Below, in pieces: positions 1 through 39,631 of a stretch of 64,000 bases of DNA. Within the stretch, counting starts at the first letter, position 1; the number at the start of each line of letters is the position of its first letter. The notes under the pieces are model-generated. The model was not told where the DNA came from, did no database searches, and saw nothing but the letters and a program-made list of their open reading frames with translations. This DNA comes from a virus. A program made the position numbers and the translations under genes. The DNA is taken from the IMG/VR virus record IMGVR_UViG_3300044995_000369, positions 1-64,000 of that record. One strand, given 5' to 3'.

Positions 1-3000
1 TTCTTTTGGACCTGTAGACTGGTTCATTCTATTATTGAGCACCCAGCCAGGCCCTCTTCCGTAAATAGTATAAGTGCCATCCGGTTCTTGCTGAGAAGTT
101 TCTACTTCGAAGAGAAACTTTTCTTCTTCTGTTAAGATATTACCATAGCCAAGATAAACTAGCATTCTAAGACCAGGTTTTATCAATATACCTGAAAGTT
201 CATCTTCGTTTTTTGCTCTTGTCTCAAAAGGAGACATTGTGTTGGATCTTGCCGCAATTATGTTGTCTAACTTATTCTCTGTGTTTGCAAGTTTTATAAT
301 TGCAACGGTTCCCGGACTTTTAGAGCTTTCAAATATCTTTACACTTAGTACATCAGCATAGGTGTAGAGGTCATCATATAATATAGTTTCCGATTTTCCC
401 TTTTTTATAAAGTACACTTTCGCTACTGGATATAGTCTCAGAGGAGAACATAAGAGTATTTTCACTTCTCTGTTAAATCTGTTCATATTTTCCCAGAGTA
501 TTCCACTCTGACTGTCTAGATATCTGTTTATTTTATCTATGACAAACTGGGTGGATAAACCAGCGGTCGCTGCAAAAACGGTGTTGACATCCTTAGCACT
601 CGTTGTGCTAGAATGAACAAGGTCTTTAGCACTGGTTACATTTTTTAGTAGTAAAGGTTTATTATTCCTACCGTAAGCAACTGATGTATTGTTATCAAAT
701 CCCTCCAGCAGTGGAGCTCTTATTCCTACATAACCATTGAACTTGAGGAAGCATCCCAAATGTGTCAGGGCATCTATAATGTCCTGCCAAGTTACAGTGA
801 TGAATGCTTCATTTGGATCATCTACTTTTTCGTATGCTAGCTTCAAGGCATACAGCTCTATGAAACTTAGTGCATGACTTGCATTATCTGCAAGGTTAAA
901 AAGCATGTAAACCCTAGAAGAAGCATTTGCTATGAATTTTGAAACTACTTCAGATGCACGAATTAGAGCTTCTCCGTTTCTAGAAAGATTTACACTCTCT
1001 TCTTTGTTCAGTCTAGAAGCAAATATATAATTCCATCTGTTTGATAATATGTTGTATCCTTCTATATTTTTTGTTTTTATTATTGCAGCTCCTCCACTGT
1101 ACATAGAACTTCCAAGGAAAGAGAAGTTTTGGAGCTTAATAAATGCGCAGTCATTAAGATTGACTTCAGGACCGGTCCTTGTAGATGACCTTGCAGAAGC
1201 TGTACTTTCTCTTATAACTGCTATGTCAGACTTTCCCCAAAAGAAGAATTTAGAAGAGTCTGTACCTCTTTTAACTCCTTCTATTACTACAGGCCTACCA
1301 AAGGACCTTGAATATATAGTTCCTGGAACTGTGCTACCTGCACTAGCTTCCGGTACAAGAGGGAACAAAAGTAGAGGACTTTCCAGTTTCTTAATGGCTG
1401 AAAAGAAGTTCTCGGCACCGTATTTACTTTCAGGGTTGAAATCTAGGGTGCTATTTAAGACTTTAAGAAACTCTCTTATGTTGTAATAATAAGCAAATGT
1501 AATGTCATTTTTGTCTGGAAACTCATTGGCAAACGTACTTATTTTACCCACTAGTTTTTCAAATCCTCTCCAAAAACTGTTTCCAGTAAGGCTATATACA
1601 AACTTTTCAGAAACTCTATACTTTTCTAAGTCAAAAAAAGATCCTGCATAAGAGATAAATGCCTCTTCTACCTGTTGAATATTTGCTATTGAGCTTCTGT
1701 TTTTGGGAAGTTTTCTTTCTAGTGTTCCCGTACCAGAAGAGATACTTGGTATAAGTTCTACTGAAAGGTATCTGTACAATCTGCCAAGTTCTGCAGTTAC
1801 CTCCAACTCAAAGCTTTCCTTTTGCATGTAATCAGAGGATATGACTATAGCTGGTTTTCCCGCAACTTTGGATTCTTTTATTTCTCCGATAAATATCCCT
1901 TGGATATTATCTAGAAAGTTTTTGAATCCTTCAAAGTATCCAGTATTTATATCCGAAGGATCGTTGGGTGCCAAAATATCAAAAGCTGCTTTGTCTGAGG
2001 ATATACCTTGTGCTTTAGCCTTTTGTACTGCCAAATACTCCGGCAAAGACTCTAATTCGTCTCTACAAAAAGACTCTTGAATTAAAGCAGTAGTGGAAAT
2101 AGCTTTTGCATTTTCATTTACTTTGTCTACCGAAGGAATAATGTGCCCTCCTGGGGACAAAACGTCTGTAGCGAATGTAGCTTTCCTTTTCATTATAAGT
2201 GGAACTGTTAAGTAAGAAAGCGTGTCCTGAAGTATAAATTCTGACTTCTGAATTGAGGAACTTATATCTGGAGGATAAACGTAGATATTGGACCTGAAGA
2301 TTCCAGAAGGAAGTAGCTTGTTTGAACGAGCATACTTGGATACAGGTAGCAAGTCCATTTCGGATATTGCAGAAGCCACTTCAAGTAAAGCTTTCATTCC
2401 AGTAAATAGTGGGGAAGTTGAAAGATTACTAAATGGTATTTTGGCCTTCAAGGAAGATAGAAACGTAGCAGTTATTTCAATATTGTCGACTTTTGGTGCA
2501 TTGTAGAACATCAAGAAAAAGCCAACTACAATGATAGCAACCACAACGATAATAGCTGCTATGAGTGCCATTTTAATACTAAGAACTACTGTGATTGCAA
2601 AGAATAGCATGTTTACATATGCACCTAAAGTAAAAGGAGCAGCATCTCCTATGATGAGAGCATAAAGAGTTTTGTTAAGCTTTTCCCAAAATGTCTTAGA
2701 ATATCCATACGAGTAGCTTCTAAGCATTTCTATGCTTATATCGCTTCTCGCCAATCCGTAAATGTTCCCACCGTCTGTTTTAGTGTTGTAATCTATTACA
2801 TAAAAAACAGAAGGTACGTATTCAGGTCTTTCTATACCATAGAACAGGTAAAAATACGAATGCACTGATGCAATAAGTCTAAGCATTTCGTCATTTGAAA
2901 AATCTATGTAGGACAATGTCGAGTACTTTAAATTTCTGTTTCCTTCTTTAACTTTGTTTGCAAAAAGAGATATTGATTCCAGTAGCCCTAAAAACCTTTT

Positions 3001-6000
3001 CGTGACCCCATTTCCATGCACTTCCCTTGTTAGAGAATTGAATATATCTATTTCTGCTTTATCCCAAACTGACTTTCTACTTTTGCTTTTGTAGGAAAAG
3101 GTATATGTATCATTTCCTATTAACTCCCCTGCAAATCTCCTTGAGTCGTCTAGTCTGAATATATCTACCAGGGCATTCTCTTTAGAGTACAGCATTGGTT
3201 TAAGCATCATTAGCTGCCTAAACGTAGAAACGAATTGGCTGTACTCTGAGAATATTACATCTCTTCCAGACAAGTTATTATTTGAATACAGGACAATTTC
3301 ATCACAAGCTCTTTGTATGTTCTCTAAGGTTTCTGGATTGATTGCTTCTTTTCTAGGTACTTTTTTGTTGGAATCAGTAAAATTAAAGTACCTGTTGATT
3401 TCAGAAATGTACTCTTCTTTTGCTTGTTCTACACTTATACCTAGCTGGAGAGCTCTATCTACAGATAACTGAGTAAGTATAGCTTCTCTCAGTACTGAGA
3501 CCGAGTCTGCTTTTTTTAAATCAGATTCAGTTGTTCCATCAATCAGTATTGTGTAAGAGTCTATTATCCAGCTTATTTGTTCTTTCAGACTTTCTTTTAC
3601 TTTATCAAGTATAAAGCTGATATTGCTCAAGGAGGTTTTTTGCTCTACAAGACTGGAGACTTTTTGGGAAGGAAAGTTGGAAGATCCAGGGATAACGTAA
3701 GACTTACCAATGTCTTCTCCTTCATTTCCAATGCTCAAAACAGAATTGACACTATAAACTACCGGAGCTGGTTTAAACAACTTCCTTTTTTCCGGGGGAG
3801 ACTCTTCCATCATTTTCCTAGTAATTTCTGACAAGGAAGCTTGAGCCCTTTTGACATCTTCTAAAATTTGGGAAGAATACAACTGGCTATCAGAACCCTT
3901 AACAGAAGACTTTTGTGATATGTCCCTTCTAGCTGCTTTGTAAGTTTCGTATGCGTTTACTATTTTAAAGGCAATCTGTCTTCCATTCGCGAGTGGAAAG
4001 CTTACTGATAACAGCAGCAGGTCACTTAAGACACTTTCATCATCTTTGAATAATAGATTGACAAACTCTTTGATTTTGGAGTGATTCTTTGTTTTTTTAA
4101 TTTTAAATTTTGAGACGCTAATCCCAATATTTTCCATTGACTTTAAGATTCCCACACTAGATTTATCTCTAGATGTAGCTAAAGAAAATGGCGCGAGTCT
4201 CATGGAAATGGAAGATGCATATTCGGAAGATAACAGGTAAGTAGCAAAGTGGTTTACTTTTAGCCTTCCCCAGATTGCTCTAATTCCATTGTAGTAAAAT
4301 GGGACATCTGCAAGTATATATTTTGGGGCTAATGCGATACTGTAAATGTCAGTATCGTACATAGCCACTTGACCATCTACTATTAAAGAAAGCAAGTCTT
4401 CTCCACAAGTGTCTATGTCTGTTTTAAGAACACTAGGGGATTGTGCGCCTTCTCTATCCGAGAAAGCAGCTACATAAGAACCAAAGAACGATTTATCTCC
4501 TTGAGATTCTGGATAGAAGTCCTTATACATTCTTTTCCATTTATCATCCATGAATGTAGAACTGACTTCACCAGATTTGCCAAATGCATTAGCATTTATA
4601 ACTAATATGCTTATCCTTTCTACTAGCTTTGAATCAGCATTTTCCGAGTTGCTCGTCCTAAAATACTCTTCACTCCTTAAGTCTTTGAAAGCTTCGCTAA
4701 TAGGATAAGTAGATAATATATATCCCATAGCTGTAGGTGCTTTTGCACTTTCAGAGTCTACAGGAGTATTTGTATATGCAAGTATGCCCAAGCCAGAAAC
4801 ATCTCCCGCGTTTTGGACAACACTTTCTGCTTCTCTTGCAATAAGCTCTATGAATGCTTGTCCCTGACCCTTAGATTCTGCAAACGCAAAGTCTTGTATA
4901 AATTCAAGTGCATACAGAGCAAAATCCTGGCTAAGAGGTATAACTACATTTATGTTGTTTTTAATGTTTTCAGTGAACTTTTCTGAGCTAGTTTCAATTA
5001 GCTTATCTCCCTTGAAGCCAAGATAAAACGAATTCAAGATACTGGCTTGCAGCACTATATTTCCGGCCTTATTGGAAAGTGCCCCTAGCGCTTTGCTACT
5101 AATAACTGTCTTTCCTATTTTGAAGCCTTCTTTTTTCAAGGAGCCGAGAAAAGCACCAGTCTCTACAATACCTCCTACTAACTGCACCTTATTCAAAATT
5201 TCTTGCAAAGGACCAGGTTCTCCAAACGTGCCTATTGGCAGGTTTGTTACTTGTCCGATCCCTCCATAAATGACAGAGGAAGCGAAGATGTTTGGACTCA
5301 AATCCAGCTCTGAAAGACCATTGCGTGATCTGACCTTATTATTCTCCGCCAGAGTTTTTACGTCTGTATCCGATAAGCTGGAAAAAGAGGAAGTAACATC
5401 TTCATAGTCTTTCGGTCTCACCAAGTTAATTGGTTCAAGGCCTCTAAGAATCTTTTGTTTTGCTTTATACATAGCATGAACAGCAACCATTGTGGAAAAG
5501 ACTGCACTAGTTGCCATTTTAGAGATTCTTATTAAAGCTTCTGCTCTTCTCAGATCGAATGTGTTTTCTCTACCCTTTTCAGAGATTACGTCTTTAAGAG
5601 CCTTGTCCTCAATACCTATGAATCTTTGAGCGAATAAGGAATCTGCAGCATTTAGCCAAGAAGCAATATCTCCAATTGTTTCGTTGCTAACTGCCCTATT
5701 CAGTTTTCTAAGATTCCTATTTGTTGTGTACCCGGCCTCATAAGGAAGCAGAAACACGTCAACTTTCCAAGATGTTGTATCTGTTGCCGAGGAAAGTTTT
5801 GTTGTTTTAGCAACAAACTTACTCAGGCCAAGTGCCATTAGAAGAGGCTCTTTAATCTGAACATGTGGTTCAGTTAGCCCAACTAATACAGAAGCAGCAT
5901 CTGCTTGTGCCGAGTTTATACTTGCTCTTCTAACTAGCCTGAAAGCATTTTCTATGACCTGGGATCCAGCAACAGACCTTATAGAAGTCGTAGAACCATT

Positions 6001-9000
6001 AGTAAAAACAGTTGCGTCTCTTACTAGTGCTCTGCCTGACCTCATCATGTTGTAAATAGTAGTTATGTCACTCGGTTCGCGTATCATATTGTAGATCGCG
6101 TCCATGCCTTCTTCTTCATTTACGAGGTCTGACAATTTACTTGTTTCTGATATATAAAGTTCTGATATATTAGTCCTGAACTGAATGTAAGCCGTAGTAG
6201 CAGTTGATCCAATTACTTGGTAGGTTGCTTTCTTCTTCCCAGGAGCCTTAATGGGGGAACTAATACCATATTCCTCGACTACCCCAATTGAAGGTATTGG
6301 TTTTTTAAGAGTCAGTTTCTTTCTTTTGACAAAATCTAAACTATCTCCACTCGCAAGCCTTATGGCTTGAGTGATGTTAAGGAGAGCACTTAACCTTCCA
6401 TTAAGATTCAAAATCTCTGTAGCTAGAGAATTGTCTCCTCTCGAAAGATCTATTTCTCCTGCTTTGTAGGTATATAGCTTCCTAAGTTTAGAAGGATCTA
6501 ATAAGATGTTTATAGTATTTTCATAAATTCTAAAAATGTCTTCTAGGATTGAGCGCGTGTCTAAAAAGATCTCTCCAAGACCCCTTATTTGAGCATATCT
6601 TACCATCCTTCTGATATTTTCCGCAGAAATGAATGGCTCATTTTTGCTGTTTCTTGCATCAGCTATTCTACTGTCGACATCAGAAATTATTCTGAGCAAT
6701 GATCTTATATTAGCTTCTATTAGCTTATTTGTGCTTTCCGAAGCAGGATCTTTTTTTGAAAGTGATTTGAATTTCTTCTCTATCTTTGATATTTTGTTTT
6801 GTATAATATCATTCTTGATATTCTTAAGCAGGTTAGTAACTTCTACGTCCTTAAGGCCAGACTTTTCCCTTTCTGGATTTGTAATTCTTACGCCCTTCTG
6901 TAGTAATTCTTGACCAGCCTTTGAAACTACATGAGCGGAATAAACATAGTCTAGATATCTTAGTAAGAGAGCTTGTATTCCAGCTAAAACAAATATAGGG
7001 TTTTTAAAGCCAGCTTGTACTGAGTTTTTATCTGAAGGATTTATAGTTTTATCAATTTCAGACATCGAGACTAAAGCAAGCTGGAAAACTTCCGCATTTA
7101 ATCCCTCCTTTGTGGAAGTTCTTCTGACAGCTTCTTCATTTCTCTGGAGTTCTCTGGTATATGCTTCTATTCTGGTTTCTTCTTTAGGAGGTTCTGCCCT
7201 AAAGATTTCCATTTCCATAGTAGTAACATCTGTAAGTAAAAAATCTGGTCTGACATAAGGAACTCTATCAGGCCTAATCCTGAATGTCATATCAAACTTG
7301 CCAGGTTCTACTCTTCCAAGTTGATACATTAGAGCGAATACATATGGTTCTGATTCATCTATAAACTTAGTCCCAATTTTTGATTTAGTAACTCCTAGCA
7401 CTTGAGTTATATTTGTGAGTACATTTGGAGTACTTTTATCCAGAAGTGGATCTTTGGTGTTTTTGGAGACTATTGACTGAATAATGTTTCTAATGGATGC
7501 TTTAATGTCTTCCAGTGATTTGTTAACTACGTTATTTATTTTTACTTTGGTGTCTCCTTTAGGTATGGCTCTTACATAATCAGCAATCAAAGTTACCAAA
7601 GTATCCTGGAATTTGACGGTTCTTAAGGGCAAAATTGTCTTTTCTTTGTCCTGGACTTCAAGTATAAACAACAAAGAGCCAGACTGACTTCTGAGTATAT
7701 TGGTTATGCCTACATTTACCTTTTGTATTGAAGTTCCTGTATTAATGCTAATATCGAACTTCAATGGTTTTTTGAACACGGAGCCTATAATATGGTCGAC
7801 TCTTTCCTGATTCCAAACCTCATACCTTTGGTTTATCAACTCTTTCTGAATCGTCCTGCCAGCCGAATTTATATTTCCCCTTTCTGTCTTGACAGAAGTG
7901 ATAGTTTTGTACAGAGAGCTGTTAAACTTCAGAGACCCTAAGGTTCCAGTTATTTGATCCACATTTTTCGTCAAAACATTTCCTTTTCCATCTGACAAAT
8001 TGGAACTAATGGAATGACTAAATGTAGAGTTTAATTCTGCAAAATAGTTCTTTTTATCTTTTAGGTTATCTAACAGAACTTTGGATATAGGGGAATTTGG
8101 TAATATCCCATCAGGTCCAAAGAGAAAGACAGCAAGACTTTGTCCTACTTCTTTTAGATTTCCCACTAGGGAATAAGTATCGCTAAGAATGCTAATTCCC
8201 AACTTATTAGAACTGATGGGTTTTATATGTACTGAGGGAAGCCCTATACCTATTCCATACTCGAACTCCATGAGATTGGACAAGCCAGCTTCCCCAAAGG
8301 AAGAGTTTGTAACAGAACACAACTCAAATGGCTTTATGATTGGGAAATTACCAGTTCCAATAAGAGCTTCTTTCCTATAGTTTGAAAAATTGTAATCATA
8401 GGCAGAAAATAGAAGATTGTCAGGAGTGACTGCGAATAGACCCGAAATGGGATCTGTATACGAAGAGATGTAACTTGGGTCTAATACAGATTCTTTTTCT
8501 ACTTTGAGAGCTGACTTTAAGCTTTGGCTATTTGGAGTTAAATCATCCTTGTAAACAAAACCATTTCTAATCCTTTTAGAGCCAGAAATTGGGACTGGTA
8601 TTTTAGAAGGAATATCTCTATACAAAGAGAAGTATCTATATACTTCTCTCATTGTCTTTTCATCTGAAAACTTAAGGTCAGAAAGACCTAAAAGAGTCTT
8701 TGCTAGTTTCCAATTGTTGGCAGTACCAAAAGCGGGTTTGTAAGACAGAAACCTACCTACTTTATTTTTCGCATTTTTTACATTCGCGTATTTGTGAACA
8801 TAAGTTCCTCGGGCTTGTTTTATTGCTTCCTCAATTGTAATTTCCGCAGGAACCTCTACAAGCTTGTTTTCTTTTAGAATATATCCAACCAGTACAGAAC
8901 CTTTCTCTACTTCCCCGGGATTGTCTTTGTTTTTGTAGTCCCCTTCAGTGTCTCCCGGGAACAGTGTAGGCATGGCGGAAGATTTAATATACTCGATCTT

Positions 9001-28231: not shown

Positions 28232-31200
28232 TATGCACTAACTCCGATTCTGTCAAAAGTTATAATTCTAACCCCGTTAGTGTTTGCGTTAACTTTGGCA
28301 ATTTGTTTAAATCCTGTCCCAAGCTTCTTAGCATTATCTGGCAATGCCAAGTCTGTTTCGGACAATGGACTGGATTTCTTAAATCCTACGCTTACTTGCT
28401 CCCACTGTAGCTTCAAGGAGCTACCACCTCCCACTGTAGTAGACTTGAACCTTATTATGTAATTACCATTTCCTTCTTTTCTTTCAAATATGTCATAAGA
28501 ATCAATATCCGAGTATATCCTAAGCATATTAGGTCCTAAAGGACTTATGCTTGGTTTAACTCTTCCTAGCTCTCCAATTTCTATTTGTGCTTGTTCAAAT
28601 TCTTCGTCTGAGAGTTCTACTCCTATGTTGTCTACACCAATAAACATTTTTGCAGCAAATAGTGACCATAAAGCTGCTATAACTTTCTTATCAAACTTCT
28701 CGACGTCCTTGTCTATTTCGATACTTGTATACGCACTATTTTTTAGGCCCCCAAGAGAAACTCCTAAAATTGACAATGGTTCTCCGGTTGCATAAATGTC
28801 ATAATATTTTGAGGTTCCATCATTCTTTCCGAAAGTATGTCCTGTTGCAACCATAAACTTTTTACTGTCGAATGTTTTGGTGATTGCTAGCCTCTTGCTA
28901 TCTTCCACTCCCAGCAAATCAGCAAAGGAACAATACTTTTCATCCTTTCCAGGTCCGGAAAATAAAGACTTAAGCTTCCCTCCAATTTCTTTTACAAAGT
29001 ACTCTCCTGGTACATATGTTAACTCATTTAGTGTCAAATCTGATAGTCTAACACTATCTGACTTGTAAGTCTTTATTGCAGGGTCATTGTATCTGTCTTT
29101 TAGGTACCTTAATTTAAGCTCTGCTTTTGCAAGTAATATTCTGTTGACACCTGGAAGGTAAGAAAAGTGTATATCTGACTTTTCTGTAACAAGTAAATTG
29201 TTTGGTTTATTTTCATTGCCGGGAGAGTTTGTTTTCAGTACTGGGCTCCTTTTAGGGATAAAAGAAGGGACTTCTTCCAAGCTAGAAGACAGCAAGTTGG
29301 ACTCTGATTCTGGATCTCCACACAGCGTTAAGCCTTCTCCAAAAGACCTTGTGCATGTTAAACCGTTTATATTTTTACCTATGCCAACACTCACATTAGT
29401 TACAGCGACATGTATTTTTTTGTTGTCAAGAGTTGAAGACGGTCCAATATATACTTTTGATGCAATCGCAAATAGCTGTTCGACTTTTGTCTCATTTTTT
29501 CCTTCCTTTAGAACGGAAAGTCTGACAGGAAGGCTACTTGGCGAGGAGGGCATTTTTGCCCCAGAAACTAGAGAATAGAGATCTATTTCATTTACTGCAT
29601 CTATGTCGGACTCACAACTAGAGCCATCCATATATTCAAAAATGCCACCAGCCTCTGACAATAGATCAAACAAAAACTGTAACATATCGATATTTCTCTT
29701 ATTTCCGGAATTCTTGTCCGACTTCTTAATTGTTATGACATTTTTTAAGTACGATAGTATCGCAACTGTATAGTAGACTACTCCACCAGAGGCATCAAAG
29801 AAATACGCTCTATTATTCTTTCTGTTGTCTTCTTCATTCTTTAATATATCAAGTGCTCGGCTAAACTCTTTTATAGACCCTTGATCAATTTCTAGCTTGA
29901 TGACTACCGACGATAAAGAATTCTCTGAGATATACTTTTCTATTTCTTCGACCCTGGTAATGTTGGAAGGAAAAACCTCCCCAGATGATATGCTAAGGAA
30001 GATTGCAGTATTTGAGCTATCATCTCCTCCATTGTTACTACTGTATAACTTTGATGCTTTGGCTGCTTCATAATACTTTTTTAACAGATTGGAAGCAAGT
30101 ACAACATTTTCACTATTATAGGAACTTAAATCACCTGATTGTGAGGTGTCTGAAGGTATAAGTATAGTTGGTTTTTGCCCTTTTTCAACATATTCCCCAC
30201 CGAGATACGATCCTACCCCAAAAAAGGAAAATAGGGACTTTTCGGAGATGTTTTCATCTATATTGGTAACTCCTGTGAGATAGGAAGAAAAGACTGTCTT
30301 GATATCTTCCCCTATGTTTCCAAAGTCCGGAATTACAACTACTGAAATATAGGAAGGTGAAACTGGTTTCCCATCTTTTAAAAACCCTTTCCTTCCGGAT
30401 TGCCTTAAGATGCCTACATCTTCTTGGGAAAAAGATAGCTCACCAGGACTCTTTACATATATACCAGCATAAGGGTTTACTGCGTTTGGATCTTTGTAAA
30501 ACTTGTAAGAAGTCAGCAGCTTGGAAAGCACTGCAAAGCCATACAGAACGGCTCTTCTTTTAGAAAGGCCTATATTTGTCATTGAAGTCAAAAAGGATAA
30601 AGGGTGGAAGTCTACAATGCTCTCATGATCCGATCCACCTTCTAAGAGAGAGTTGTAGTCATCAAATGTCCCATTTAGTATACCTTCCAAGGTTCTAAAT
30701 TTTGTTCCCCTTGGAAGGTATGGATACATGCCATTTCTAAGGAGGAAGTCTGTATAAGTCTTTCCCGTTACTGTTAGCTCAGAGTTTTTTATAAAACCAA
30801 CATCTCTGAGTTTATCTGAGTTAATCATCTCTACTATCTTGTTTTTCTTATCCTGGTAGGAGTGGTTGTTTCCAATTTCTCTAGTAAGTTCTTCCGCGTC
30901 TGATTTCTGATAGGCAGCAGGAACCCCAAAAGCAGCAGTGAAATAGATATCTCTTTCAATGCCAGGAACTTTGGTGTCAGAGAAGTTTCTTAAAACAAAA
31001 GAAAGTCTTCTTGACCCTTCGTTAGATGAATCTGCATATAAAGAGGTACTTAATATTTGCAGAAGCTGAGCCGGGAGCCAATTTAGATGTTTTAGGGATT
31101 GGTCGTTTTTTTGTGCCAATTTTTTGGTTATATTAAGAGCAGTTTCGAGATTACTTTCTATTCTCTTGTTTTGTACAGCACCTTCTGTGAGAGCTACTGA

Positions 31201-34200
31201 AAAGTTTACCGGATTGTTTGGATAAAAGTTAATCTTGTCAGAAACTGATTTCGCTATAAACTGCACTTCTCCTGAGTACTTTGGGGCCTTTATGTTTATT
31301 ACCTGAGCAAAGACTGGTCTTGAAGACAAGTAGCCAAACTCTATGTCAAGTATTGCTGTTTTGCTCAAACCATTGATTCTTGGATTGTCAAACTTAGACA
31401 GATAACTGGGAGGAACCTCCATACCAAAAATTGATGTCCCTATAACAGTTTTTGGATCGTCTTTGATCTTTTCTGTCCATTCAGAAGATTTGACAATTTT
31501 GCTCCATATATCCTTTCCCACTGCTTGCTGCAACATTCTATCTGAGAAGATAGAAGCTTGATCAAGCTTCCATTTGCCATGAAAGGCAAATCTTTTATTT
31601 TCTACTAAGGATCTCGCAAAACTATCAAAGTTTTTGATTACGCATCTGTAACCGAGTCCCTTAACAATATCTGGAAAACCATATCCGGGTCTAAGGAATA
31701 TACAAGCCATCCTGTTGGTAGTGGGATCTTCCATGAAGGATAAATCGATAGATGTCTTTCCAACCAAAGAAGACAATGTTATCCCATTTTTCAAGTCTTC
31801 TGACTTCAAGTCTTTCAGAACTACAGGATACATTTTTGTAAATTTAATCCCTGCTGAAGAGTCTTTAGAGACTTTCAACATGTTAGTAAAATCCTTCAGG
31901 GGAACTATGTACTCCGTATCCTCATTTGATGAAGAACCAAAGAAAGAAGATTTGTCTTTCGAATAGATTGAAGAAGCTATAATTTTATCTCTCATTATCT
32001 TTTTTAGGTCTTCTTCACTTGTTCCTTTTTCTATTGGTTCAAATGTATTTACTATTCTTGAGTTTTCTATAACTGCTTGACCAACAACTCCCATCATGTC
32101 CAAGAGTTGCAAGGTAAATGCACAGTGGGTAGCTATTGTTCTTACAGGGTCTAAATTACCATCTAGCCATTTTGGTTTAACTACCTTAAACAAAAATACC
32201 CACTTTCCCTCTTCTATGTTTCTTACAAACTGTTCGTATGTATATGACTTTGTATGATCTATGAAAGAATACTCGTCTGTACCTTCTATACTTTCCACCA
32301 AGCACACTGGGATTTTTATTGAGGCATCCCCTGGCACTATGTTTTTTTCGCCTTTAGGGTAAGTCCACGAGGAAAGGAAGAACTTAGAAACTGAAAATGC
32401 ACTAGCCAGGCTAGCTCCATTGTCATTAGTCTTTCCTTCTAGTACAGAATTAGAAAGCTCTTTTAAGAATTCTAGTAGCGGTGTTGCACTTCTTACTTCA
32501 TACTCCGGAACTATAGAAGCATCCTCTGAAGAAAGCTTTGATGCATACAAATAGTACTGATCAACTCCATCCTTCAGTAGCTTTCTTAACTTTTCATTTC
32601 TTAGGATGGTATCTAGGATAATTCCTGCTATGCAAAAAACAGCTACAACTAGCGCCTCTTTTTCCCTTTGCGACCCATTGTATTCTACTCCTACAGCGTC
32701 CCCTATGGAAATAAGTTCCGGAATTGAGAAGATAGAAGAATTGCTAAGCAGATTATATTTTGTAGCTATGGAATTTATGAGCTCTGCATTTATAGAATCT
32801 GCATCTTCTATTGAGGAACCCAGTGGGTAGAGTATTTGCATTCCGATAACAGAGGATCCTCCCCAAAAACTTGAAATCATATTAGGCTTACTAAGTAGGA
32901 ACAATAGGGGACTTTTAATGGATGACAGCAAAAGATCGTTAAAGCTGCTTGAGATAACATCCACAAGAGAAGAGGAAAGTCCGAATTCATTGATCATTTT
33001 TCCTCTTACCCAGGATAGGTTTGATCCCTGTGCAACAAAGTTTTCGAAGGCCTCTTTGTTGCTCAAGGCCAAGCCGAGAAACTGTTTAGCAGGATTACCT
33101 TCTCCCGTGGAAAAGTTTAGCTGAGAAAGAATACTATTTATTAGTACAGGTACAGAACTATAAGAATAATTTATGTTGTTTACAAACATCCCAACAAACT
33201 CTTTGGGATCCCTAATTTCAAACTTTTTATAGTGTTCAGATCCTTCTTCAACTTTCCCGTCACCAGAAAGGAATCCATTCCACGGAATGAAGCTCACGTT
33301 ATTGGGAACGTAGTTGTAGTCTAAAGCAGGCGAAGAGCTTGAGGGATTTGGATTGAAATTCAAACCATTACCAGATACAGTAAAGTATTCCTTAACTGTA
33401 TCTGAAAATATACTTGAATCAGTAGACGGTATGACAAACTTTTTGATAGAAGCAATCTCTGAAAGAGAGTACTTCTTCTTTCCTAATATATTTGATGGGT
33501 TAGTTTGGTCAACTACTTCTATTGTGATAGTCTCAATATCTCCTGACTCTTCAGAGATTACTCTTCCTCTTACCTTTTGTGAGGTTTTGGTTACTATTTC
33601 TACCATTTCTCCACTTCTGTCCTCCCTGGTAAAGGCTATTCCAAGCAAGCCAGCTATGGATTTTTTGAAGTCTTCTACCAGTTCCACATAAAAGTGGTCT
33701 GATGTTATACAAGAGTACATAAAGTCTCCAAAAATGCCACCATTGGAGACATAGAAAGGTCCAGCAGAGTTGGTTATTTTGTCCGGATAGAAAGAAGGAA
33801 GCAAATCTCCTAATTCTATCCTTGAACTCGGAAGAGTTTCTAAGGAAGACCTTCCGAAAAGAATCCTTTTAGCAACTGAAAAAGAGAAGGCTATATCTTT
33901 TAGTTTTGTTTGTTGTACTGGTCTTGTACTTATGTTCTCTTTCGAGGGTTCTGACTCTGGTTTTATGCTTGCTGTAACATTTGGGGAGACAAAAGACGAA
34001 ACTACTTCTATAATACCTGGTCTAGCTTTAAACTCTGGACTTAGCAAGGAAGCTTCATCTATACAACTTCCTGGAACAAAGGGGTCAGTTGTATATCTTA
34101 CGCTCTGGTCTTCGCTGTATATTACTTCTCCTGGCTGAATGTCTATTACAAACGAGTTGTCCTCCGGATTGTAAAGAGACGTTTGTTTTACAGACGCATC

Positions 34201-36420
34201 TATAAAGATTTCGGAGGTGCTAGCATTGGCAGAGACAGCTGCTTTGTTTATTTCTTTTCCTATGTGTATTTTGCATTCCTTCAAGGAGCCCAAGATAAGC
34301 TTTCCTATGGCTTTCAGCCTTGTGAAAGATATAGTGTTATCAGATCTTACAATGTATAGACTCGAATCAGAGTTTATTGTCATATTATCTGTTGCTACAA
34401 GTAGCAAATCGTTTAGGGAGCAAGAAAGAAATTCGCGAGATGCTGATCTTTGCAACAGTGAGTTGTATGCTCCTTCTGACAAGTTGTCTGATACATTGGA
34501 AGATAAGTCAGAGTTTAAAGCACCAAATGAACCAGCAATCCTTCTTAGTATGTCTTTGTATATATCAAAATTTGATGTACCAATTTTGTAGTTTTTGTCA
34601 TAGATTTTTGAAATCCCAGACAAGGACACATTTCTAAGAAGGGAGCTTATAGGAATTGAATATTTTTCTTCATCGTAGCCACCAAGTCCATAAGTCAGTA
34701 TTTCTGCATCTAAAAAAGGAGCTATGTTTTCTTTGAAGACGCTTGGATCTTCTGGGGAGTAAACTCCAGGACTATCCCATCTTTTCCTTTCTGCTCCGAA
34801 AACAAGATGGGCATAAGGTGGGGTTTCATAATAAAGTATTTGCAGCTCATTAAAGTAGTTGTCTTCTGAAGGTTCTGCGTAGCCATATACAAAAGAACCA
34901 TCGGATTCTTTTCCCATATAAGAAACAAACGGAGTCCAGTAGAAGAAAGAAGGCAAGTCAGAGTAAGCCTTGATGTTAGAGCCTGACTTTATTCCTCCTT
35001 TCCACCTCGGAGAGTTCAACAGCTTCGAACTAATTACATCCTGCCAGTCTTTTTCTTTGATATACTCTCTAACTTTCAGGGCAGAAAACTGATCCAAAGT
35101 TTTTGGAGAACCATCATCTGCTTCTGCTGGTTTATTTCCTGTTTTACTTACCTGATTTATAGCAGCTCTACCCAGTATTGGAGAAGTTATCTTGTCCTTG
35201 ACTTCAGAAATAGACTTATCCAAATCACTAATTGTAAGGTTCTTTGTTCCATGTTTTACGATGGTATTTGGTACAAGATCTGTTTTTGAATATTGGGGAG
35301 TCTCTTCTACGTCATAAAATAAATCCCCAGACCAGATTGCTCTTTTCCAGTCCTCATCTAACTCGACTTGGGTAGATCCTTCTGTAACTGGCTTTTCCAG
35401 CCTAGTATCAATGTAGGAGACATAGTCTTTATTTCCTTTTTCAGTGTAAAAAAGAGGAACATTGACAATGTTAGCGAAGTCAGCCAGAATAGGAAGACTC
35501 GCTAGAGCAGAGTTTTCACTTTCATCTATTTTTGTTGGCAGCACCATTCTTGCAGCTGCAAGTGCAGAGGTGCTTTTGAGTTTTGTTCCTATAACAGAGC
35601 TTTTTGAAATGATGACTTTTTTGGCTTCTGTAAACCATTTACCAAAAATACCACCATATGCTACTCCAGCTTTTACCGGAATAAACAAAGGTCTTGTGAT
35701 TTTGCCTAGATAAAGACCACCCTTTACCATTGGTTTTTGAGGACAATTGTACATTTCCCTTCCAACTTCCACTTCTATAGAAAGAGGAAATGCTTTGTCT
35801 TCCACCAGCCCTTTTGATGCTAGTTGGGAGTCTATTGTCATAACGTCAGAAGCGTTCAAAGATTTAATCAAATCTTTAGCTCCTTCTTTGGGAACTCTTA
35901 GCGTCCAAGGAATATTAAACTGGTCAATGTATTTGTATTCTGGAGGAACCTCGTCTCCGAACTTGTTGATGGAGTCTTTTGGCATTGATACTTGATTTTT
36001 AATCGAAATTCTGGCAGCTTCTTCGAACGCTTTTTGTGCTTTGTTTTTTTGGTCAGCTATGAACTCTTGAGCTTTCTTGATTACTTCAGAAATGTCCCCA
36101 AAAGCGATATGCCTAAAAATGGAAGCAGCATGAGTTAAAGCAGTTGGGGTTATAAAATATCTGACATCATAGCCACAAATCATCTCCAGATGATTCAGCC
36201 TGTTATATACATTGTACTCTTTTGAAGGAGAAGATGCTTCTATAGAAGCATCCGTTGTATCCTTCGGAGCTAGTGGTTGATTTTTTAACCTACCAACATC
36301 CCCTTTTCCAGGAGAAGTACCATCAGTAAAAAGTGTCTTAGTAGAATCTGTGATAGCAGGAGGATTTGCACCAATTCTCCTTGCTGCCAGTTCCTTGTCT
36401 CTGAGGTTTATTTCTGCCAT
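28231..36420 (-). CDS. Giant hypothetical virion-associated protein (2729 aa)
   Basis: Long Ser-rich ORF in the tail operon, with a 1-bp gap to the upstream gene and a TAATG overlap with the downstream gene. No recognisable catalytic motif. Confidence 0.75.
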   Translation of the reverse strand: MAEINLRDKELAARRIGANPPAITDSTKTLFTDGTSPGKGDVGRLKNQPLAPKDTTDASIEASSPSKEYNVYNRLNHLEMICGYDVRYFITPTALTHAASIFRHIAFGDISEVIKKAQEFIADQKNKAQKAFEEAARISIKNQVSMPKDSINKFGDEVPPEYKYIDQFNIPWTLRVPKEGAKDLIKSLNASDVMTIDSQLASKGLVEDKAFPLSIEVEVGREMYNCPQKPMVKGGLYLGKITRPLFIPVKAGVAYGGIFGKWFTEAKKVIISKSSVIGTKLKSTSALAAARMVLPTKIDESENSALASLPILADFANIVNVPLFYTEKGNKDYVSYIDTRLEKPVTEGSTQVELDEDWKRAIWSGDLFYDVEETPQYSKTDLVPNTIVKHGTKNLTISDLDKSISEVKDKITSPILGRAAINQVSKTGNKPAEADDGSPKTLDQFSALKVREYIKEKDWQDVISSKLLNSPRWKGGIKSGSNIKAYSDLPSFFYWTPFVSYMGKESDGSFVYGYAEPSEDNYFNELQILYYETPPYAHLVFGAERKRWDSPGVYSPEDPSVFKENIAPFLDAEILTYGLGGYDEEKYSIPISSLLRNVSLSGISKIYDKNYKIGTSNFDIYKDILRRIAGSFGALNSDLSSNVSDNLSEGAYNSLLQRSASREFLSCSLNDLLLVATDNMTINSDSSLYIVRSDNTISFTRLKAIGKLILGSLKECKIHIGKEINKAAVSANASTSEIFIDASVKQTSLYNPEDNSFVIDIQPGEVIYSEDQSVRYTTDPFVPGSCIDEASLLSPEFKARPGIIEVVSSFVSPNVTASIKPESEPSKENISTRPVQQTKLKDIAFSFSVAKRILFGRSSLETLPSSRIELGDLLPSFYPDKITNSAGPFYVSNGGIFGDFMYSCITSDHFYVELVEDFKKSIAGLLGIAFTREDRSGEMVEIVTKTSQKVRGRVISEESGDIETITIEVVDQTNPSNILGKKKYSLSEIASIKKFVIPSTDSSIFSDTVKEYFTVSGNGLNFNPNPSSSSPALDYNYVPNNVSFIPWNGFLSGDGKVEEGSEHYKKFEIRDPKEFVGMFVNNINYSYSSVPVLINSILSQLNFSTGEGNPAKQFLGLALSNKEAFENFVAQGSNLSWVRGKMINEFGLSSSLVDVISSSFNDLLLSSIKSPLLFLLSKPNMISSFWGGSSVIGMQILYPLGSSIEDADSINAELINSIATKYNLLSNSSIFSIPELISIGDAVGVEYNGSQREKEALVVAVFCIAGIILDTILRNEKLRKLLKDGVDQYYLYASKLSSEDASIVPEYEVRSATPLLEFLKELSNSVLEGKTNDNGASLASAFSVSKFFLSSWTYPKGEKNIVPGDASIKIPVCLVESIEGTDEYSFIDHTKSYTYEQFVRNIEEGKWVFLFKVVKPKWLDGNLDPVRTIATHCAFTLQLLDMMGVVGQAVIENSRIVNTFEPIEKGTSEEDLKKIMRDKIIASSIYSKDKSSFFGSSSNEDTEYIVPLKDFTNMLKVSKDSSAGIKFTKMYPVVLKDLKSEDLKNGITLSSLVGKTSIDLSFMEDPTTNRMACIFLRPGYGFPDIVKGLGYRCVIKNFDSFARSLVENKRFAFHGKWKLDQASIFSDRMLQQAVGKDIWSKIVKSSEWTEKIKDDPKTVIGTSIFGMEVPPSYLSKFDNPRINGLSKTAILDIEFGYLSSRPVFAQVINIKAPKYSGEVQFIAKSVSDKINFYPNNPVNFSVALTEGAVQNKRIESNLETALNITKKLAQKNDQSLKHLNWLPAQLLQILSTSLYADSSNEGSRRLSFVLRNFSDTKVPGIERDIYFTAAFGVPAAYQKSDAEELTREIGNNHSYQDKKNKIVEMINSDKLRDVGFIKNSELTVTGKTYTDFLLRNGMYPYLPRGTKFRTLEGILNGTFDDYNSLLEGGSDHESIVDFHPLSFLTSMTNIGLSKRRAVLYGFAVLSKLLTSYKFYKDPNAVNPYAGIYVKSPGELSFSQEDVGILRQSGRKGFLKDGKPVSPSYISVVVIPDFGNIGEDIKTVFSSYLTGVTNIDENISEKSLFSFFGVGSYLGGEYVEKGQKPTILIPSDTSQSGDLSSYNSENVVLASNLLKKYYEAAKASKLYSSNNGGDDSSNTAIFLSISSGEVFPSNITRVEEIEKYISENSLSSVVIKLEIDQGSIKEFSRALDILKNEEDNRKNNRAYFFDASGGVVYYTVAILSYLKNVITIKKSDKNSGNKRNIDMLQFLFDLLSEAGGIFEYMDGSSCESDIDAVNEIDLYSLVSGAKMPSSPSSLPVRLSVLKEGKNETKVEQLFAIASKVYIGPSSTLDNKKIHVAVTNVSVGIGKNINGLTCTRSFGEGLTLCGDPESESNLLSSSLEEVPSFIPKRSPVLKTNSPGNENKPNNLLVTEKSDIHFSYLPGVNRILLAKAELKLRYLKDRYNDPAIKTYKSDSVRLSDLTLNELTYVPGEYFVKEIGGKLKSLFSGPGKDEKYCSFADLLGVEDSKRLAITKTFDSKKFMVATGHTFGKNDGTSKYYDIYATGEPLSILGVSLGGLKNSAYTSIEIDKDVEKFDKKVIAALWSLFAAKMFIGVDNIGVELSDEEFEQAQIEIGELGRVKPSISPLGPNMLRIYSDIDSYDIFERKEGNGNYIIRFKSTTVGGGSSLKLQWEQVSVGFKKSSPLSETDLALPDNAKKLGTGFKQIAKVNANTNGVRIITFDRIGVSA

Positions 36421-36421: not shown

Positions 36422-39400
36422 TTAGAATATTATCCCTCTAGGATTTGGATCCTGTCCTCTGTAAGCATTTGGATCTTTAACTGCTTCATCCAAAACAAAC
36501 ATAGAAGGTCTTGGTGCTTTCCTAGTCAGCAAGAAAACCTCTGAAGTTTTACTGCCTGCGTTGGAAAGGAGCGGTTCTCCTGTTTCACTAGTTATTCCTC
36601 CGACCAGTTTGTCCAAATCTTCCCCATAAATGTAATCAACAGACCACTCTGGAGATTTAAAATATCTGTTGAAGCCATCTACAAGCTGAGTGTCTACTCT
36701 ATTATATACTGCTCCACCTACCGAAGTTCCTCCGTTAGCTAACACCTCATCACCTTCATATTCATCTGGATTTGCACTGATGATTTCTTTGACGTCGTTG
36801 TAAATTATTCTAGAAAGGTATTCAGCTAGTCTGTCTTTAAAAACTATGTATCTTTCTCCATTGTTATAAACTGATATGTTTTTAAGAGCAGTAGAAGGGA
36901 CTGGAGTTTCCCCACCAGTTCTTGAGCTTCTGACAATGGTTGTATCTTGGAATATTGTAGTTAAGTCTAAGCCAATGGAATCTAAGATGTTAACTGCTTC
37001 ATTTATAATAGGAACGTGAATAGCCAGGTTCCAAATTCCTTCTGCAGTGTCAAGTGCAGCACTCCCGAAAATACCGATAGTTTTTGCTGCAAGTCCAATG
37101 CCGGAAGCAGCAAGGCCAATTCCTCCTAAGGTAAGGGCAGTTCCCCCTCCTTGTATTATATTGAAAGTAAGAGCTTGCCAAACACCATCATGTTTTAGCG
37201 CCCTTAAGGATCCTGCAAATAGTCTGATTGCGATGTCTGTTTCTCTCCTATAGAAGTTTAGTCCTGCATTCGCAGAAACATTTGCTAGAGTTGTAAAAAT
37301 ATCCTTTGGCCATCTTTCATCGAATGTGAAATATGATCTATCACATCTTATAAAAGAGGTATATACCACTTTGGAGGAGGGCATAGTGGTTGCCGCTGAT
37401 ACATAGTCATTACGGCCAATTACTTGAGTAAATCTGCCACCTAAATCTCTGACTCTGTCAGAAACTATTCTTACAAGCATGCCTGGAAGTTTTTTATCTC
37501 TAAGCAATCTTGCGATAGTATCTTTGTTCCAAGTTGCTGAAAAGTTAAGGACTTTATTAAATCCAGTCTCATTAAATCCAACGATGCTGTATATATAGTC
37601 TATCTCTTCGTTTGATACGCACTCACAACCATCGAGCAAAGATGCCGCAATTGCCCTGTTTACTTTTGCGTGAGAACCAAAAGCTAGACTTAGCTCTCCG
37701 ATAGTGCTATTTGCAATAAGTTCATCCAGTCCTAGGGGAAATACTTGGACTATTACAGAATCAACTGCAAATCCATAGGCAACTTTTCCAAAGTCGTCTT
37801 GAAGATCTATTTCGTAATTTACAACTTTATCACTATTGCTAAGAATTCCTAACGTCACCGTTTCAAAGACGTTAGACAAAAAGGAGCTAGCACCAAAAAT
37901 AATATCCAATGGGCCAAGAGGAGTCAGAAGGTACCAAGCTTCTGCTTCGTACTTTGAGACTAAATCTATGGGAGATACTTTGCTTGCGGTAGGAGTTGCG
38001 GACTTAGCCACCTTGACGTAGGATCCATCAAAAGTCTGCTTTAGTGGTACTAGCGAACTATACTCATCTGGAAGAGATATCCTGTTTTCAATAATAGACA
38101 AAAAGTCACCTTGCTGAATAAGAGGATAGTCTTCTATAAGAACCCTTTTTGTTTTATCATCCAAGTCTTCTGTTTTAATGGTAGGTATAGGCATATAGAA
38201 CATCGACCTAACAGGTGCCCTTATGAAGCCCCCTGTTCTTTCATCGTAATCTCTATACATAGCAACCGTCATAAAAGCTGCCATGAGAGTAGAACCAGTG
38301 ACAGAGTGAGTATCTTCTTCCTGGAAAGTATAATCCCCAGAATTTTTAATACGGGCAGGAAGAAGTGGATCTTGTCCAAAAGAATCACCTACCGTACCAG
38401 GCATTGCAGGTACAGGTATAAGCCAAGAGTAAGATAAAGCTCTGTGAGTAGGAAGAGCTCTACTGATAAACGGTGTATTTGCAATTAGGAAATCAGGATC
38501 GGGAAATAGATTCTTCCATACTCCCCTCAGAGTTGTGCGAGTAGGAATTTCTCCACGTTTATACTCCCTATACTGATATGGCTTATTTTCTTTTATAATG
38601 TTTTCAGCAGTTTCTGCTGGGGAATCGATTTCATAATAAACAGTATTGTATTGAAGAGGGATAATGTCAGGTACACCATATTGTTCAACTTTTACTGGGG
38701 TAAGACATAATTCTGGTCCCCAACCAGCAATAGCTGGAGGAAGTGATCCTATAAATCCTATGTTGTTAGGATTTAAAGCTACTGGTATACTTACATCTTT
38801 GATTAGAACTTTCATATTGCTTTTAAGAAAGTTCATAAAAGAATCCATAAAGTTTCTAACAGTCGCATCGAAGTCTATTCTCTTCTTACCCAACAATGAA
38901 CCGGTTTCTGGGTTGTCTCTGATTGGCCTTCTTCTACCAAACCAGCTAATGACTCTTATTTGTGTAGCACCATCCGCAAGTATTGCCTTACTGGATGTGT
39001 CAAAGGTTACATCTTCAAAGACATCTATTGCTGGCTCTGGGTCTGTTATATCGCCAGATACGATTATCAGCTTCGGTAAGTCCCAGTCTCTCCCAGTAAT
39101 AATTTCTGTGTTTATCCTTTTCAGACTCTGATCCACAATTCTAGCTGCTTCTGTAGGACCATATTTGCTGAGTAGCCTTACATTTATGTCTGCTGCTAAG
39201 AGATTATTTCTTTGAGAAACGATATCCTTTATCAGCTCTCTTTGGTAGTTTTCTTTAGCCAACAAAGTTTTATACTTTGCAATTGTTGCAAGAAGTTCAT
39301 TTGTTTTAGTTTCGAAGACATATAGGTTACCCCTAACTATATACTTACCCTCAAGAATGTCATCAAAGTATTGTGAGGCATAGTGGTAAACTGGGGTCTT

Positions 39401-39631
39401 ACTGTTTTCTTCTCTGTGTTCAATGCCTACTATTTCAGATATCCAGATTGGACCAAAGAATACACTGCACCTAACGGAAGATTTATGGTTGGACTTGTAG
39501 GGATCATAAAAAGTGGGGTCTTTAGACTGCTGAGTAGTGTCGGCTATACCAAACTCATCAGTCCTAGTGACAGCCTTTATTGATGCCCTGGTAGCATCTA
39601 GTTTGTCTTGGAATTGTCTAGTATCTGCCAA
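36422..39631 (-). CDS. Tail/baseplate protein with an N-terminal tail-tube-like domain (1069 aa)
   Basis: The N-terminal VFFGPIWISEIVGIEHREENSKTPVYHYASQYFDDILEGKYIVRGNLYV parallels the tube protein segment (LTREKVPVYTFGS...RGKRACAGSMQF). TTG start. Confidence 0.6.
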   Translation of the reverse strand: MADTRQFQDKLDATRASIKAVTRTDEFGIADTTQQSKDPTFYDPYKSNHKSSVRCSVFFGPIWISEIVGIEHREENSKTPVYHYASQYFDDILEGKYIVRGNLYVFETKTNELLATIAKYKTLLAKENYQRELIKDIVSQRNNLLAADINVRLLSKYGPTEAARIVDQSLKRINTEIITGRDWDLPKLIIVSGDITDPEPAIDVFEDVTFDTSSKAILADGATQIRVISWFGRRRPIRDNPETGSLLGKKRIDFDATVRNFMDSFMNFLKSNMKVLIKDVSIPVALNPNNIGFIGSLPPAIAGWGPELCLTPVKVEQYGVPDIIPLQYNTVYYEIDSPAETAENIIKENKPYQYREYKRGEIPTRTTLRGVWKNLFPDPDFLIANTPFISRALPTHRALSYSWLIPVPAMPGTVGDSFGQDPLLPARIKNSGDYTFQEEDTHSVTGSTLMAAFMTVAMYRDYDERTGGFIRAPVRSMFYMPIPTIKTEDLDDKTKRVLIEDYPLIQQGDFLSIIENRISLPDEYSSLVPLKQTFDGSYVKVAKSATPTASKVSPIDLVSKYEAEAWYLLTPLGPLDIIFGASSFLSNVFETVTLGILSNSDKVVNYEIDLQDDFGKVAYGFAVDSVIVQVFPLGLDELIANSTIGELSLAFGSHAKVNRAIAASLLDGCECVSNEEIDYIYSIVGFNETGFNKVLNFSATWNKDTIARLLRDKKLPGMLVRIVSDRVRDLGGRFTQVIGRNDYVSAATTMPSSKVVYTSFIRCDRSYFTFDERWPKDIFTTLANVSANAGLNFYRRETDIAIRLFAGSLRALKHDGVWQALTFNIIQGGGTALTLGGIGLAASGIGLAAKTIGIFGSAALDTAEGIWNLAIHVPIINEAVNILDSIGLDLTTIFQDTTIVRSSRTGGETPVPSTALKNISVYNNGERYIVFKDRLAEYLSRIIYNDVKEIISANPDEYEGDEVLANGGTSVGGAVYNRVDTQLVDGFNRYFKSPEWSVDYIYGEDLDKLVGGITSETGEPLLSNAGSKTSEVFLLTRKAPRPSMFVLDEAVKDPNAYRGQDPNPRGIIF

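Follow-up and report, generated by a model that had tools for sequence, protein, structure and literature searches.

We analysed the first 64 kb of the unclosed, 79,195-bp viral contig IMGVR_UViG_3300044995_000369 from IMG/VR (labelled G000); "the window" refers to this whole stretch, positions 1 to 64,000. At positions 1-39631, the listing of open reading frames (ORFs) contains eight consecutive, tightly packed minus-strand genes spanning ~40 kb. Gene order and sequence matches lead us to assign this block to a greatly inflated operon for the tail core and baseplate hub, from a jumbo myovirus of a deep 0305phi8-36-like lineage. The 0305phi8-36-type module has already been described in outline, and the window holds an extremely inflated version of it. 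Our best explanation of the block as a whole, for and against which we find the evidence evenly balanced, is such an inflated operon in which one of the giant proteins, gB, would act as a tail-delivered polymerase. The genes, labelled from upstream to downstream on the minus strand, are as follows:

36422-39631, minus strand: gH, 1069 amino acids, whose N-terminal ~230 residues are homologous to the gp142-slot protein of relatives
28231-36420, minus strand: gG, 2729 amino acids, a beta-rich giant with no counterpart in relatives
26402-28231, minus strand: gF, 609 amino acids, of the EEP family (Pfam PF03372 Exo_endo_phos, E 7.7e-7, above the gathering score)
25740-26402, minus strand: gE, 220 amino acids, candidate tail assembly chaperone and first of a pair, by position only
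24934-25806, minus strand: gD, up to 290 amino acids, second candidate chaperone, overlapping gE by 67 nucleotides in the -1 frame
18693-24908, minus strand: gC, 2071 amino acids, gp145-family virion protein
10666-18696, minus strand: gB, 2676 amino acids, tape-measure-slot protein directly upstream of the hub
1-10635, minus strand: gA, at least 3545 amino acids, hyperplastic baseplate-hub giant, truncated C-terminally at the edge of the contig

The triad gC, gB and gA keeps its order across 11 related genomes, of which 5 are cultured phages. This order is seen in L001-L006 (six IMG/VR loci found with a gC alignment, one of them lying within a 183.5-kb genome that is complete and has terminal repeats), in G003 and G005, and in 0305phi8-36, MTATph1, ME3, Edson and KLEB27-3. 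In the relatives, the tube paralog is followed by a protein of ~270-300 residues, small ORFs, a gp145-like protein, a protein of 1300-2540 residues and a giant of 1900-2800 residues. The tail module of the Bacillus phage 0305phi8-36 was described by Thomas et al. 2007 and Hardies et al. 2007 (PMC2147016), and its annotated order is sheath gp139, tube gp140, tube paralog gp141, gp142, the "tail chaperonins" gp143 and gp144, gp145, gp146 and gp147. According to the GenBank annotation, mass spectrometry detected the structural protein gp145 in virions, and gp146 (2537 amino acids, "hypothetical tape measure protein") likewise. The 1903-residue gp147 is a baseplate hub with wall-degrading domains, after which come gpV-like and gpJ-like genes. 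Since the order is conserved, and since gC matches gp145 and gA matches giants that in turn match gp147, we conclude that gC, gB and gA are the window versions of a conserved triad.

The first three genes of the 0305phi8-36 module also have homologs in the window, upstream of gH:

46364-48808, minus strand: sheath, 814 amino acids, match to 0305phi8-36 gp139 (1.7e-10) and to phrog_16991 tail sheath (5e-6)
45453-46310, minus strand: tube, 285 amino acids, match to 0305phi8-36 gp140 (3e-26)
44176-45363, minus strand: tube paralog, 395 amino acids, match to 0305phi8-36 gp141 (1.4e-15)

An original prediction made from the DNA letters had described this stretch as packed, translationally coupled giant genes in a phage with a sheath and a tube, and had proposed that tape measure, RNA polymerase and hub-like giant form a coupled delivery system. 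Its description of the sequence holds. The ORFs lie where it had placed them, and the junctions show the overlaps it had claimed, ATGA at gC/gB and TAATG at gG/gF and gF/gE. gH/gG has a spacer of 1 nucleotide, and the remaining spacers are 25-30 nucleotides. Sheath and tube are confirmed by the matches listed above. The prediction had set absence from the virion or a gene order not kept in relatives as grounds for giving it up; the triad is kept in 11 relatives, and both the homolog of gC (gp145) and the positional equivalent of gB (gp146) are annotated from mass spectrometry of 0305phi8-36 virions. Taken together, the conserved triad and a virion location that follows from homology and annotation lend support to the putative delivery apparatus in general terms. 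GC skew and AT skew are negative throughout the block. Searches of Pfam, PHROGs and NCBIfam with the block proteins gave no match except for the EEP domain of gF.

The polymerase reading depends on gB, and three of its features are used below:

12769-12783, minus strand: DFDGD, residues 1972-1976 of gB, candidate catalytic metal-binding loop
12949-12963, minus strand: VDPNI, residues 1912-1916 of gB, degenerate counterpart of an NRxPT motif
10861-10917, minus strand: Ala/Gly-rich segment resembling a transmembrane (TM) helix, residues 2594-2612 of gB, about 65 residues before the C-terminus

A HMMER search with residues 1001-2200 of gB against 1.84 billion representatives returned only 7 clusters, with lengths of 2470-2680 residues except for a 672-residue fragment. 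In the family alignment (8 sequences, down to 24% identity), R1971, D1972, D1974 and D1976 are invariant, with the motif consensus (L/M)(D/E)RDFD(G/N)D. Two more conserved blocks occupy 2234-2249 and 2283-2293, and conserved Lys pairs such as K1426 and K1433 are candidates for the basic residues that the second barrel of a two-barrel polymerase supplies. VDPNI lies at -58 from the aspartate triad, P1914 is invariant in the family, and both MAFFT and hhalign pair VDPNI with the motifs NRYPTI, MRHPTI and GRYPAV of positional orthologs. An EF-hand was considered for DRDFDGD and rejected, as the orthologs have Gly at position 4 of DxDGD and no acid at position 12. For the closest relatives (65-74% identity), we infer from a shared longest contig (117,695 bp) that the gB homolog P0004 is co-located with the gC homolog P0006.

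A DxDxD motif is found at a relative position of 0.73-0.79 in gB and in the proteins that occupy the same slot in seven other lineages, making eight lineages in all. The positions and motifs in these slot proteins are:

L001 slot protein: 0.73, ADKDAD
L005/L006 slot proteins: 0.73, LDYDLD
L002 slot protein: 0.74, GGDFDAD
L003, P0026 and P0027 slot proteins: 0.75, GDFDGD and GDYDGD
ME3 gp36: 0.76, GGDHDQD
Edson 0920: 0.79, KADHDGD
KLEB27-3 gp034: 0.79, KADYDGD

When the sequences were shuffled, D.D.D appeared in the 0.72-0.80 zone by chance in only 0.8-4.7% per lineage, and the recurrence is therefore conservation and not chance. By MAFFT and a pattern count, an R-x-P motif also lies 38-113 residues upstream of DxDxD in 7/7 of the lineages other than that of gB, in the forms NRYPTI (Edson and KLEB27-3), MRHPTI, GRYPAV, QRHPTA, HRQPIE and SREPAQ. 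The NRxPT and DxDGD pair resembles the signature of the beta-prime active-site barrel, "NRAPTLH ... NADFDGD", in which R-x-P comes about 35-60 residues ahead of the triad. It also resembles "FRSPLIH ... GGADTDGD" of 0305phi8-36 orf99, a YonO-like polymerase. The sole family match in KLEB27-3 gp034 is Pfam PF00623 RNA_pol_Rpb1_2 (E 0.015), at residues 1877-1944, which spans both motifs. A six-frame search with PF00623 found one place each in Edson (9.4e-4) and KLEB27-3 (7e-5), both within the slot ORF.

The slot proteins examined, including gp146, also share a C-terminal architecture: a TM-like segment lies ~100 residues before the terminus, where an "N-(I/V)-x-D-(N/D)" motif stands. A merged slot-protein profile is collinear with gp146 (E 5.5e-4), in which the two motif sites, at about residues 1980-2050, read as the degenerate NRANLG and KEFDQA (0305phi8-36 is L009 in our set). 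0305phi8-36 is the only intact genome with degenerate slot-protein motifs. Of the genomes tested, it alone encodes an RdRP/YonO-type polymerase in a gene apart from the slot (PF05183, 1e-20; orf99); none was found in G000, G001, G002, G003, G005, ME3, MTATph1, Edson or KLEB27-3. It is suggestive, in a single genome, that the apparently decayed slot motifs complement a separate polymerase in 0305phi8-36. In MTATph1 (L010), the slot gene at 22109-29465 is apparently split by a transposase and an IstB-like-looking ORF (CDS0028/0029); the C-terminal TM-like segment of the family and an "NIQDN" tail motif are in CDS0031, and neither piece contains DxDxD.

Several results count against a polymerase in gB. 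No Pfam, PHROG, NCBIfam or PDB sequence match was obtained for gB, and PF00623 matched neither gB nor any other part of G000 even at E<=10. Among ten genomes, PF00623 matched in two and in none of the other eight, and the scores of those two (16.7 bits in Edson and 20.2 bits in KLEB27-3) lie below the gathering cut-off of 25.3. The second barrel (PF00562, DPBB-B) was not found in G000, G003, Edson, KLEB27-3 or ME3. At the site of the upstream R-x-P motif, the gB family has VDPNI, without the Arg. Aligned by hhalign with the merged slot profile, the gB family gave an E value of 0.029 and a probability of 1.7%, which is not significant, although the same alignment pairs VDPNI with RxPT and DFDGD with DyDgD; the proposed relation of gB to the other slot proteins would thus lie in synteny, architecture and motifs. 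Compared by hhalign with individual ortholog groups, the gB family gave nothing significant, and with orf99 of 0305phi8-36 it gave nothing at all. AlphaFold models of residues 1381-2580 and 1890-2350, built from eight-sequence alignments, reached predicted local distance difference test (pLDDT) scores of only 52.6 and 53.0; they are mostly helical, the DFDGD loop falls in a low-confidence helix (<50), and only a small alpha/beta domain at residues ~2000-2160 is moderately confident. Foldseek and VIA searches with these models returned only generic helical matches, which we counted as no result, and ESM Atlas searches gave nothing informative.

Deeper alignments of the slot proteins were unattainable because these proteins are rare and fast-evolving. 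Slot proteins outside the gB family are too divergent from gB for BLAST or HMMER, and tblastn with gB found no match in cultured phages. Nor was there a match to gB or its alignment in IMG/VR, to the gC and gB alignments in JGI metagenomes, or to the gC and gB family profiles in PDB sequence searches. In IMG/VR, an alignment of the L001, L005 and L006 proteins returned only the query loci, and the L003 slot protein had two homologs only.

On this evidence, drawn from sequence comparison, the probability that gB is an RNA polymerase seems to us close to even, if anything a shade below. The original prediction had called the 2676-residue protein RNA polymerase-like. A conserved signature and weak PF00623 matches in two relatives uphold the likeness, and a polymerase fold (two double-psi beta-barrels, DPBB, with a bridge helix) was not recovered for gB. 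The opposing view, which we consider unlikely, is that gB is a tape measure or other structural protein of the tube lumen, that DxDxD is a Ca2+/Mg2+ site or belongs to another enzyme, and that the block is an ordinary inflated myovirus tail module. In keeping with this view, gp146, the positional equivalent of gB, was annotated as a "hypothetical tape measure protein" from tail length (PMC2147016), the AlphaFold secondary structure of gB is almost all helix as in tape measures, no polymerase match or DPBB-B was found, and 0305phi8-36 is viable although gp146 lacks the aspartate triad. However, the AlphaFold models are too poor to argue for helicity. A structural role also has to account for a small-small-D-aromatic-D-G-D pattern that follows NRxPT at beta-prime-like spacing in seven lineages, and for PF00623 matches that fall exactly at the motif site in two cultured relatives. 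Moreover, the short orthologs (1490-1670 residues) would have little tape-measure length left beside a catalytic module of ~800-1100 residues, a size estimated from P23-45 fragments (PMC10770324).

The role of gC bears on the same question. Its conserved regions are:

19203-21815, minus strand: conserved core of gC, residues ~1032-1902, common to gp145-like proteins of distant relatives
21354-21491 and 19299-19394, minus strand: Gly-rich hydrophobic stretches of gC, about residues 1140-1185 and 1839-1870, within the core

The core matched 0305phi8-36 ORF145, "virion structural protein", by tblastn at 2e-17, and blastp of gC with gp145 gave E values of 1.9e-23, 5e-13 and 3.5e-8. Weaker tblastn matches were found in the Bacillus phages Edson, WH1 and KLEB27-3, the Moorella phage MTATph1 and the Acinetobacter phage ME3. 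Eleven homologs share 46-74% identity with gC, most of them 2040-2065 residues long. Conservation is high across the C-terminal two-thirds, where numerous W, H, D, E and G positions, many of a catalytic type, do not vary. One homolog, P0006 (74% identity), extends to 2902 residues and contains an intein (Pfam Intein_splicing and LAGLIDADG_3). We found no Pfam, PHROG, NCBIfam or PDB match for gC, including none to a tape-measure family.

The original prediction had named gC the tape measure and gB a separate polymerase, as a "split" form of the fusion in P23-45. Its homology to gp145 makes gC a probable virion protein; the tape-measure label is uncertain, as gp145 was assigned no role and it is the next slot that is annotated as tape measure. 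A location between the tail chaperones and the baseplate hub cannot decide between the two proteins, because gC (after the chaperones) and gB (before the hub) both have it, and neither matches a known tape-measure family in Pfam, PHROGs or NCBIfam. We regard as doubtful the reading in which gC is the length-determining tape measure and gB separate polymerase cargo. It gains from the place of gC directly after the chaperone pair with its possible -1 slip site, from the steady length of gC in most homologs, from its Gly-rich hydrophobic stretches, and from the genomes with short orthologs, where the slot protein has only ~1500 residues and the gp145-like protein 1260-1400. It loses from the conservation of the C-terminal two-thirds of gC with invariant W, H, D and E, unlike fast-evolving helical tape measures, and from the absence of a tape-measure family match. 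Furthermore, the authors of the 0305phi8-36 study, judging by tail length, gave the tape-measure role to the gene after gp145 (PMC2147016).

The chaperone pair is placed by position. gE and gD occupy the slot of the two "tail chaperonin" genes gp143 and gp144 of 0305phi8-36 (PMC2147016), and we found no sequence similarity of gE or gD to gp143 or gp144 or to each other. Within the gE/gD overlap (25740-25806), we read by eye a GAAAAAG at 25763-25769 on the minus strand, a candidate -1 slip site that could fuse gE to the gD frame, as in lambda G/GT. In 0305phi8-36, the two chaperonins are encoded as separate genes.

At the other end of the triad, gA is linked to baseplate hubs through intermediates:

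139-483, minus strand: hub-homology segment of gA, residues 3385-3499, matching the same-slot giants of L007 (8e-8) and L008 (2e-6)
2476-2640, minus strand: strongly hydrophobic TM hairpin of gA, residues 2666-2720, with a Kyte-Doolittle mean of up to 2.94 over 19 residues

The L007 and L008 giants match 0305phi8-36 gp147, a gp27-like hub, at 1.6e-16 and 5e-13, and the L007 giant has a Peptidase_M23 domain, with Baseplate_J coming after this giant. The homology of gA to gp147 is thus transitive, the direct match having only an E value of 0.1, and by this route the hub-like giant of the original prediction is recovered. Upstream of the hub segment, gA has an N-terminal extension of >3300 residues that is specific to the window lineage and holds the TM hairpin; gA probably runs on for some 600-1000 residues past the contig start. 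No Pfam or PHROG match was found for gA, no cultured-phage tblastn match for residues 546-3545 and no PDB sequence match; PF05954 (gpD) gave no match in the relatives. A two-helix TM hairpin so deep within the protein is unusual for a soluble virion protein; once ejected, it may become embedded in the membrane of the host. In ME3, the hub giant gp37 has a staphylococcal-nuclease domain (residues 1126-1401, 4.7e-14) beside Peptidase_M23; no such domain was found at the gA N-terminus by Pfam at E<=0.01.

With this hairpin, the TM-like segment of gB and the two Gly-rich stretches of gC, the hydrophobic or Gly-rich segments that had been predicted for three giants are accounted for. The count of four giants, in contrast, mixes the conserved triad with additions not seen in the relatives examined, because gH shares only its N-terminus with them and gG and gF have no counterparts. 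Residues 37-265 of gH match the gp142-slot proteins of L001, L005 and L006 at 1e-12 to 1e-13 and, over the same range, 0305phi8-36 gp142 weakly (E 0.02). In the relatives, this slot protein has ~260-310 residues and directly follows the tube paralog, and the gH N-terminus is the third tube-like protein of the conserved backbone. The C-terminal ~800 residues of gH are an extension; gH gave no Pfam or PHROG match. For gG, there was likewise no Pfam or PHROG match and no tblastn match in 50,697 phage records, and no gene of its type occurs at this position in L001-L006, 0305phi8-36, ME3, MTATph1, Edson or KLEB27-3. From its Pfam match and position, gF is classed as a lineage-specific EEP enzyme insertion in the tail operon. 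The gH extension, gG and gF were seen in none of the relatives examined and stand outside the conserved module.

If the polymerase reading is correct, the parts could work together as follows. The backbone would run from the tube-like gH N-terminus through two chaperones, gC and gB to the gp27-type hub gA. gC and gB would fill the lumen of the tail tube, where the C-terminal TM-like segment and tail motif of gB would anchor it next to the hub. When the sheath contracts, gC and gB would be driven out before the DNA, and the Gly-rich stretches and TM segments would enter the host envelope. The DFDGD domain of gB would then transcribe the first phage genes as an RNA polymerase brought in by the virion, like P23-45 gp96.

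Only for gp96 of the Thermus phage P23-45 has a virion polymerase fused to a tape measure been shown by experiment, an association that its authors described as previously unsuspected (Chaban et al. 2024, PMC10770324). Like gp96, gB is a giant encoded in the tail module, at or beside the tape-measure slot, with DFDGD, membrane segments, otherwise undetectable similarity to known polymerases and a proposed delivery through the tail. The two differ in that P23-45 is a siphovirus whose polymerase is N-terminal, with DFDGD at residue 779 of 5002, whereas the window phage is contractile and has the motif at ~74% of the length. In addition, a second, gp145-like giant precedes gB in the window, and we detected no sequence homology to gp96. 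The activity and fold of gp96 are proven, while those proposed for gB are putative.

In a further reading, the giants would be capsid-packaged cargo and homologs of the three giants that crAss-like phages eject. This is a loose analogy: there too several giant genes are found, one with a DFDxD-type motif (10.1101/2020.03.07.982082). phi14:2 gp66 of this group is, like gB, a giant virion protein with such a motif that is thought to be ejected. However, phi14:2 is a podovirus with its cargo in the capsid and has no homology or synteny with the window, whose giant genes lie between tube paralog and baseplate in the order of a myovirus tail module, in a phage with sheath and tube. gA carries hub homology, and no sequence match was found to solved chains, which would include the crAss-like polymerase 6VR4. 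Nothing ties the cluster to crAss-like cargo, and this analogy of the original prediction, which we now hold to be very improbable, is set aside.

Among contractile-tailed phages, 0305phi8-36 is the nearest described system. It shows direct homology to the window sheath, tube, tube paralog and gp145-like protein, indirect homology to the hub, and a slot protein whose C-terminal architecture is like that of gB. The window differs from it by the addition of gG, the EEP enzyme and an 800-residue extension of the gp142-like protein, by a hub of at least 3545 residues with a TM hairpin compared to 1903 in gp147, and by a tail module that is split by an insert. Furthermore, gB has an intact DFDGD where gp146 has the degenerate KEFDQA, and 0305phi8-36 has the separate YonO-like orf99. 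ME3 gp36, Edson 0920 and KLEB27-3 gp034 share with gB the slot, the motif position (0.76-0.79), the C-terminal TM-like segment and tail motif, and flanking giants. They differ in a clearer upstream "RxP", their similarity to gB is not significant, and Edson and KLEB27-3 have the sub-threshold PF00623 matches that gB does not. The annotations of all three go no further than hypothetical or structural protein.

From these comparisons, we tentatively propose, as something more probably wrong than right by a modest measure, that in a deep 0305phi8-36-like lineage of contractile-tailed jumbo phages, including ME3, Edson, KLEB27-3 and the window phage, the tape-measure slot encodes a highly divergent two-barrel RNA polymerase, built as a single chain and delivered by way of the tail tube. 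The site in 0305phi8-36 would have decayed after the gain of a YonO-like polymerase, and the window would hold the largest version, its extra giants being maybe further cargo. In full-text literature searches, we came across no account of a myovirus with a polymerase in its tape-measure slot. In a survey of jumbo-phage two-barrel polymerases, these were reported only for group 1 and for the group 3 phages 0305phi8-36 (orf99) and c-st, and not for ME3 (Iyer et al. 2021, PMC7824862). The supplementary files of the P23-45 paper do not contain "0305phi8-36", "ME3" or "Acinetobacter" (PMC10770324).

CheckV estimated the 79,195-bp contig to be 33% complete, and the full genome would thus have a jumbo-phage size of roughly 200-240 kb. 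Elsewhere in the window are genes for a terminase, a capsid protein and a portal of Mu type. The contig does not simply close into a circle, as terminal repeats are absent and its far end cuts through a TnpB-like ORF. This ORF, outside the window at contig positions 78226-79194 on the minus strand, has an OrfB-type zinc ribbon (CxxC...CxxC), and the assembly probably broke at this mobile element. Between the tube paralog and gH, a plus-strand insert divides the tail module:

39809-41971, plus strand: RecA interrupted by an intein (Pfam RecA 4.9e-130, Intein_splicing, LAGLIDADG_2); the intein carries a LAGLIDADG homing endonuclease
41974-42672, plus strand: UDG-superfamily gene, directly after the RecA gene

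A tape-measure-associated virion RNA polymerase has so far been shown experimentally only in the siphovirus P23-45 group. If gB and its positional orthologs are such polymerases, delivery of proteins and enzymes through a contractile tube would be an old and widespread strategy. ME3, Edson and KLEB27-3, in which no other recognizable two-barrel polymerase was found, would gain a candidate enzyme for early transcription, and they would offer tractable systems for the passage of a >250-kDa enzyme through a tail tube. Were the motif only structural, the block would be an ordinary though extreme case of the described 0305phi8-36-type tail module. The inflation of this tail-core operon is itself extreme, with 40 kb for eight genes and a hub of >3,500 residues that contains a membrane hairpin.

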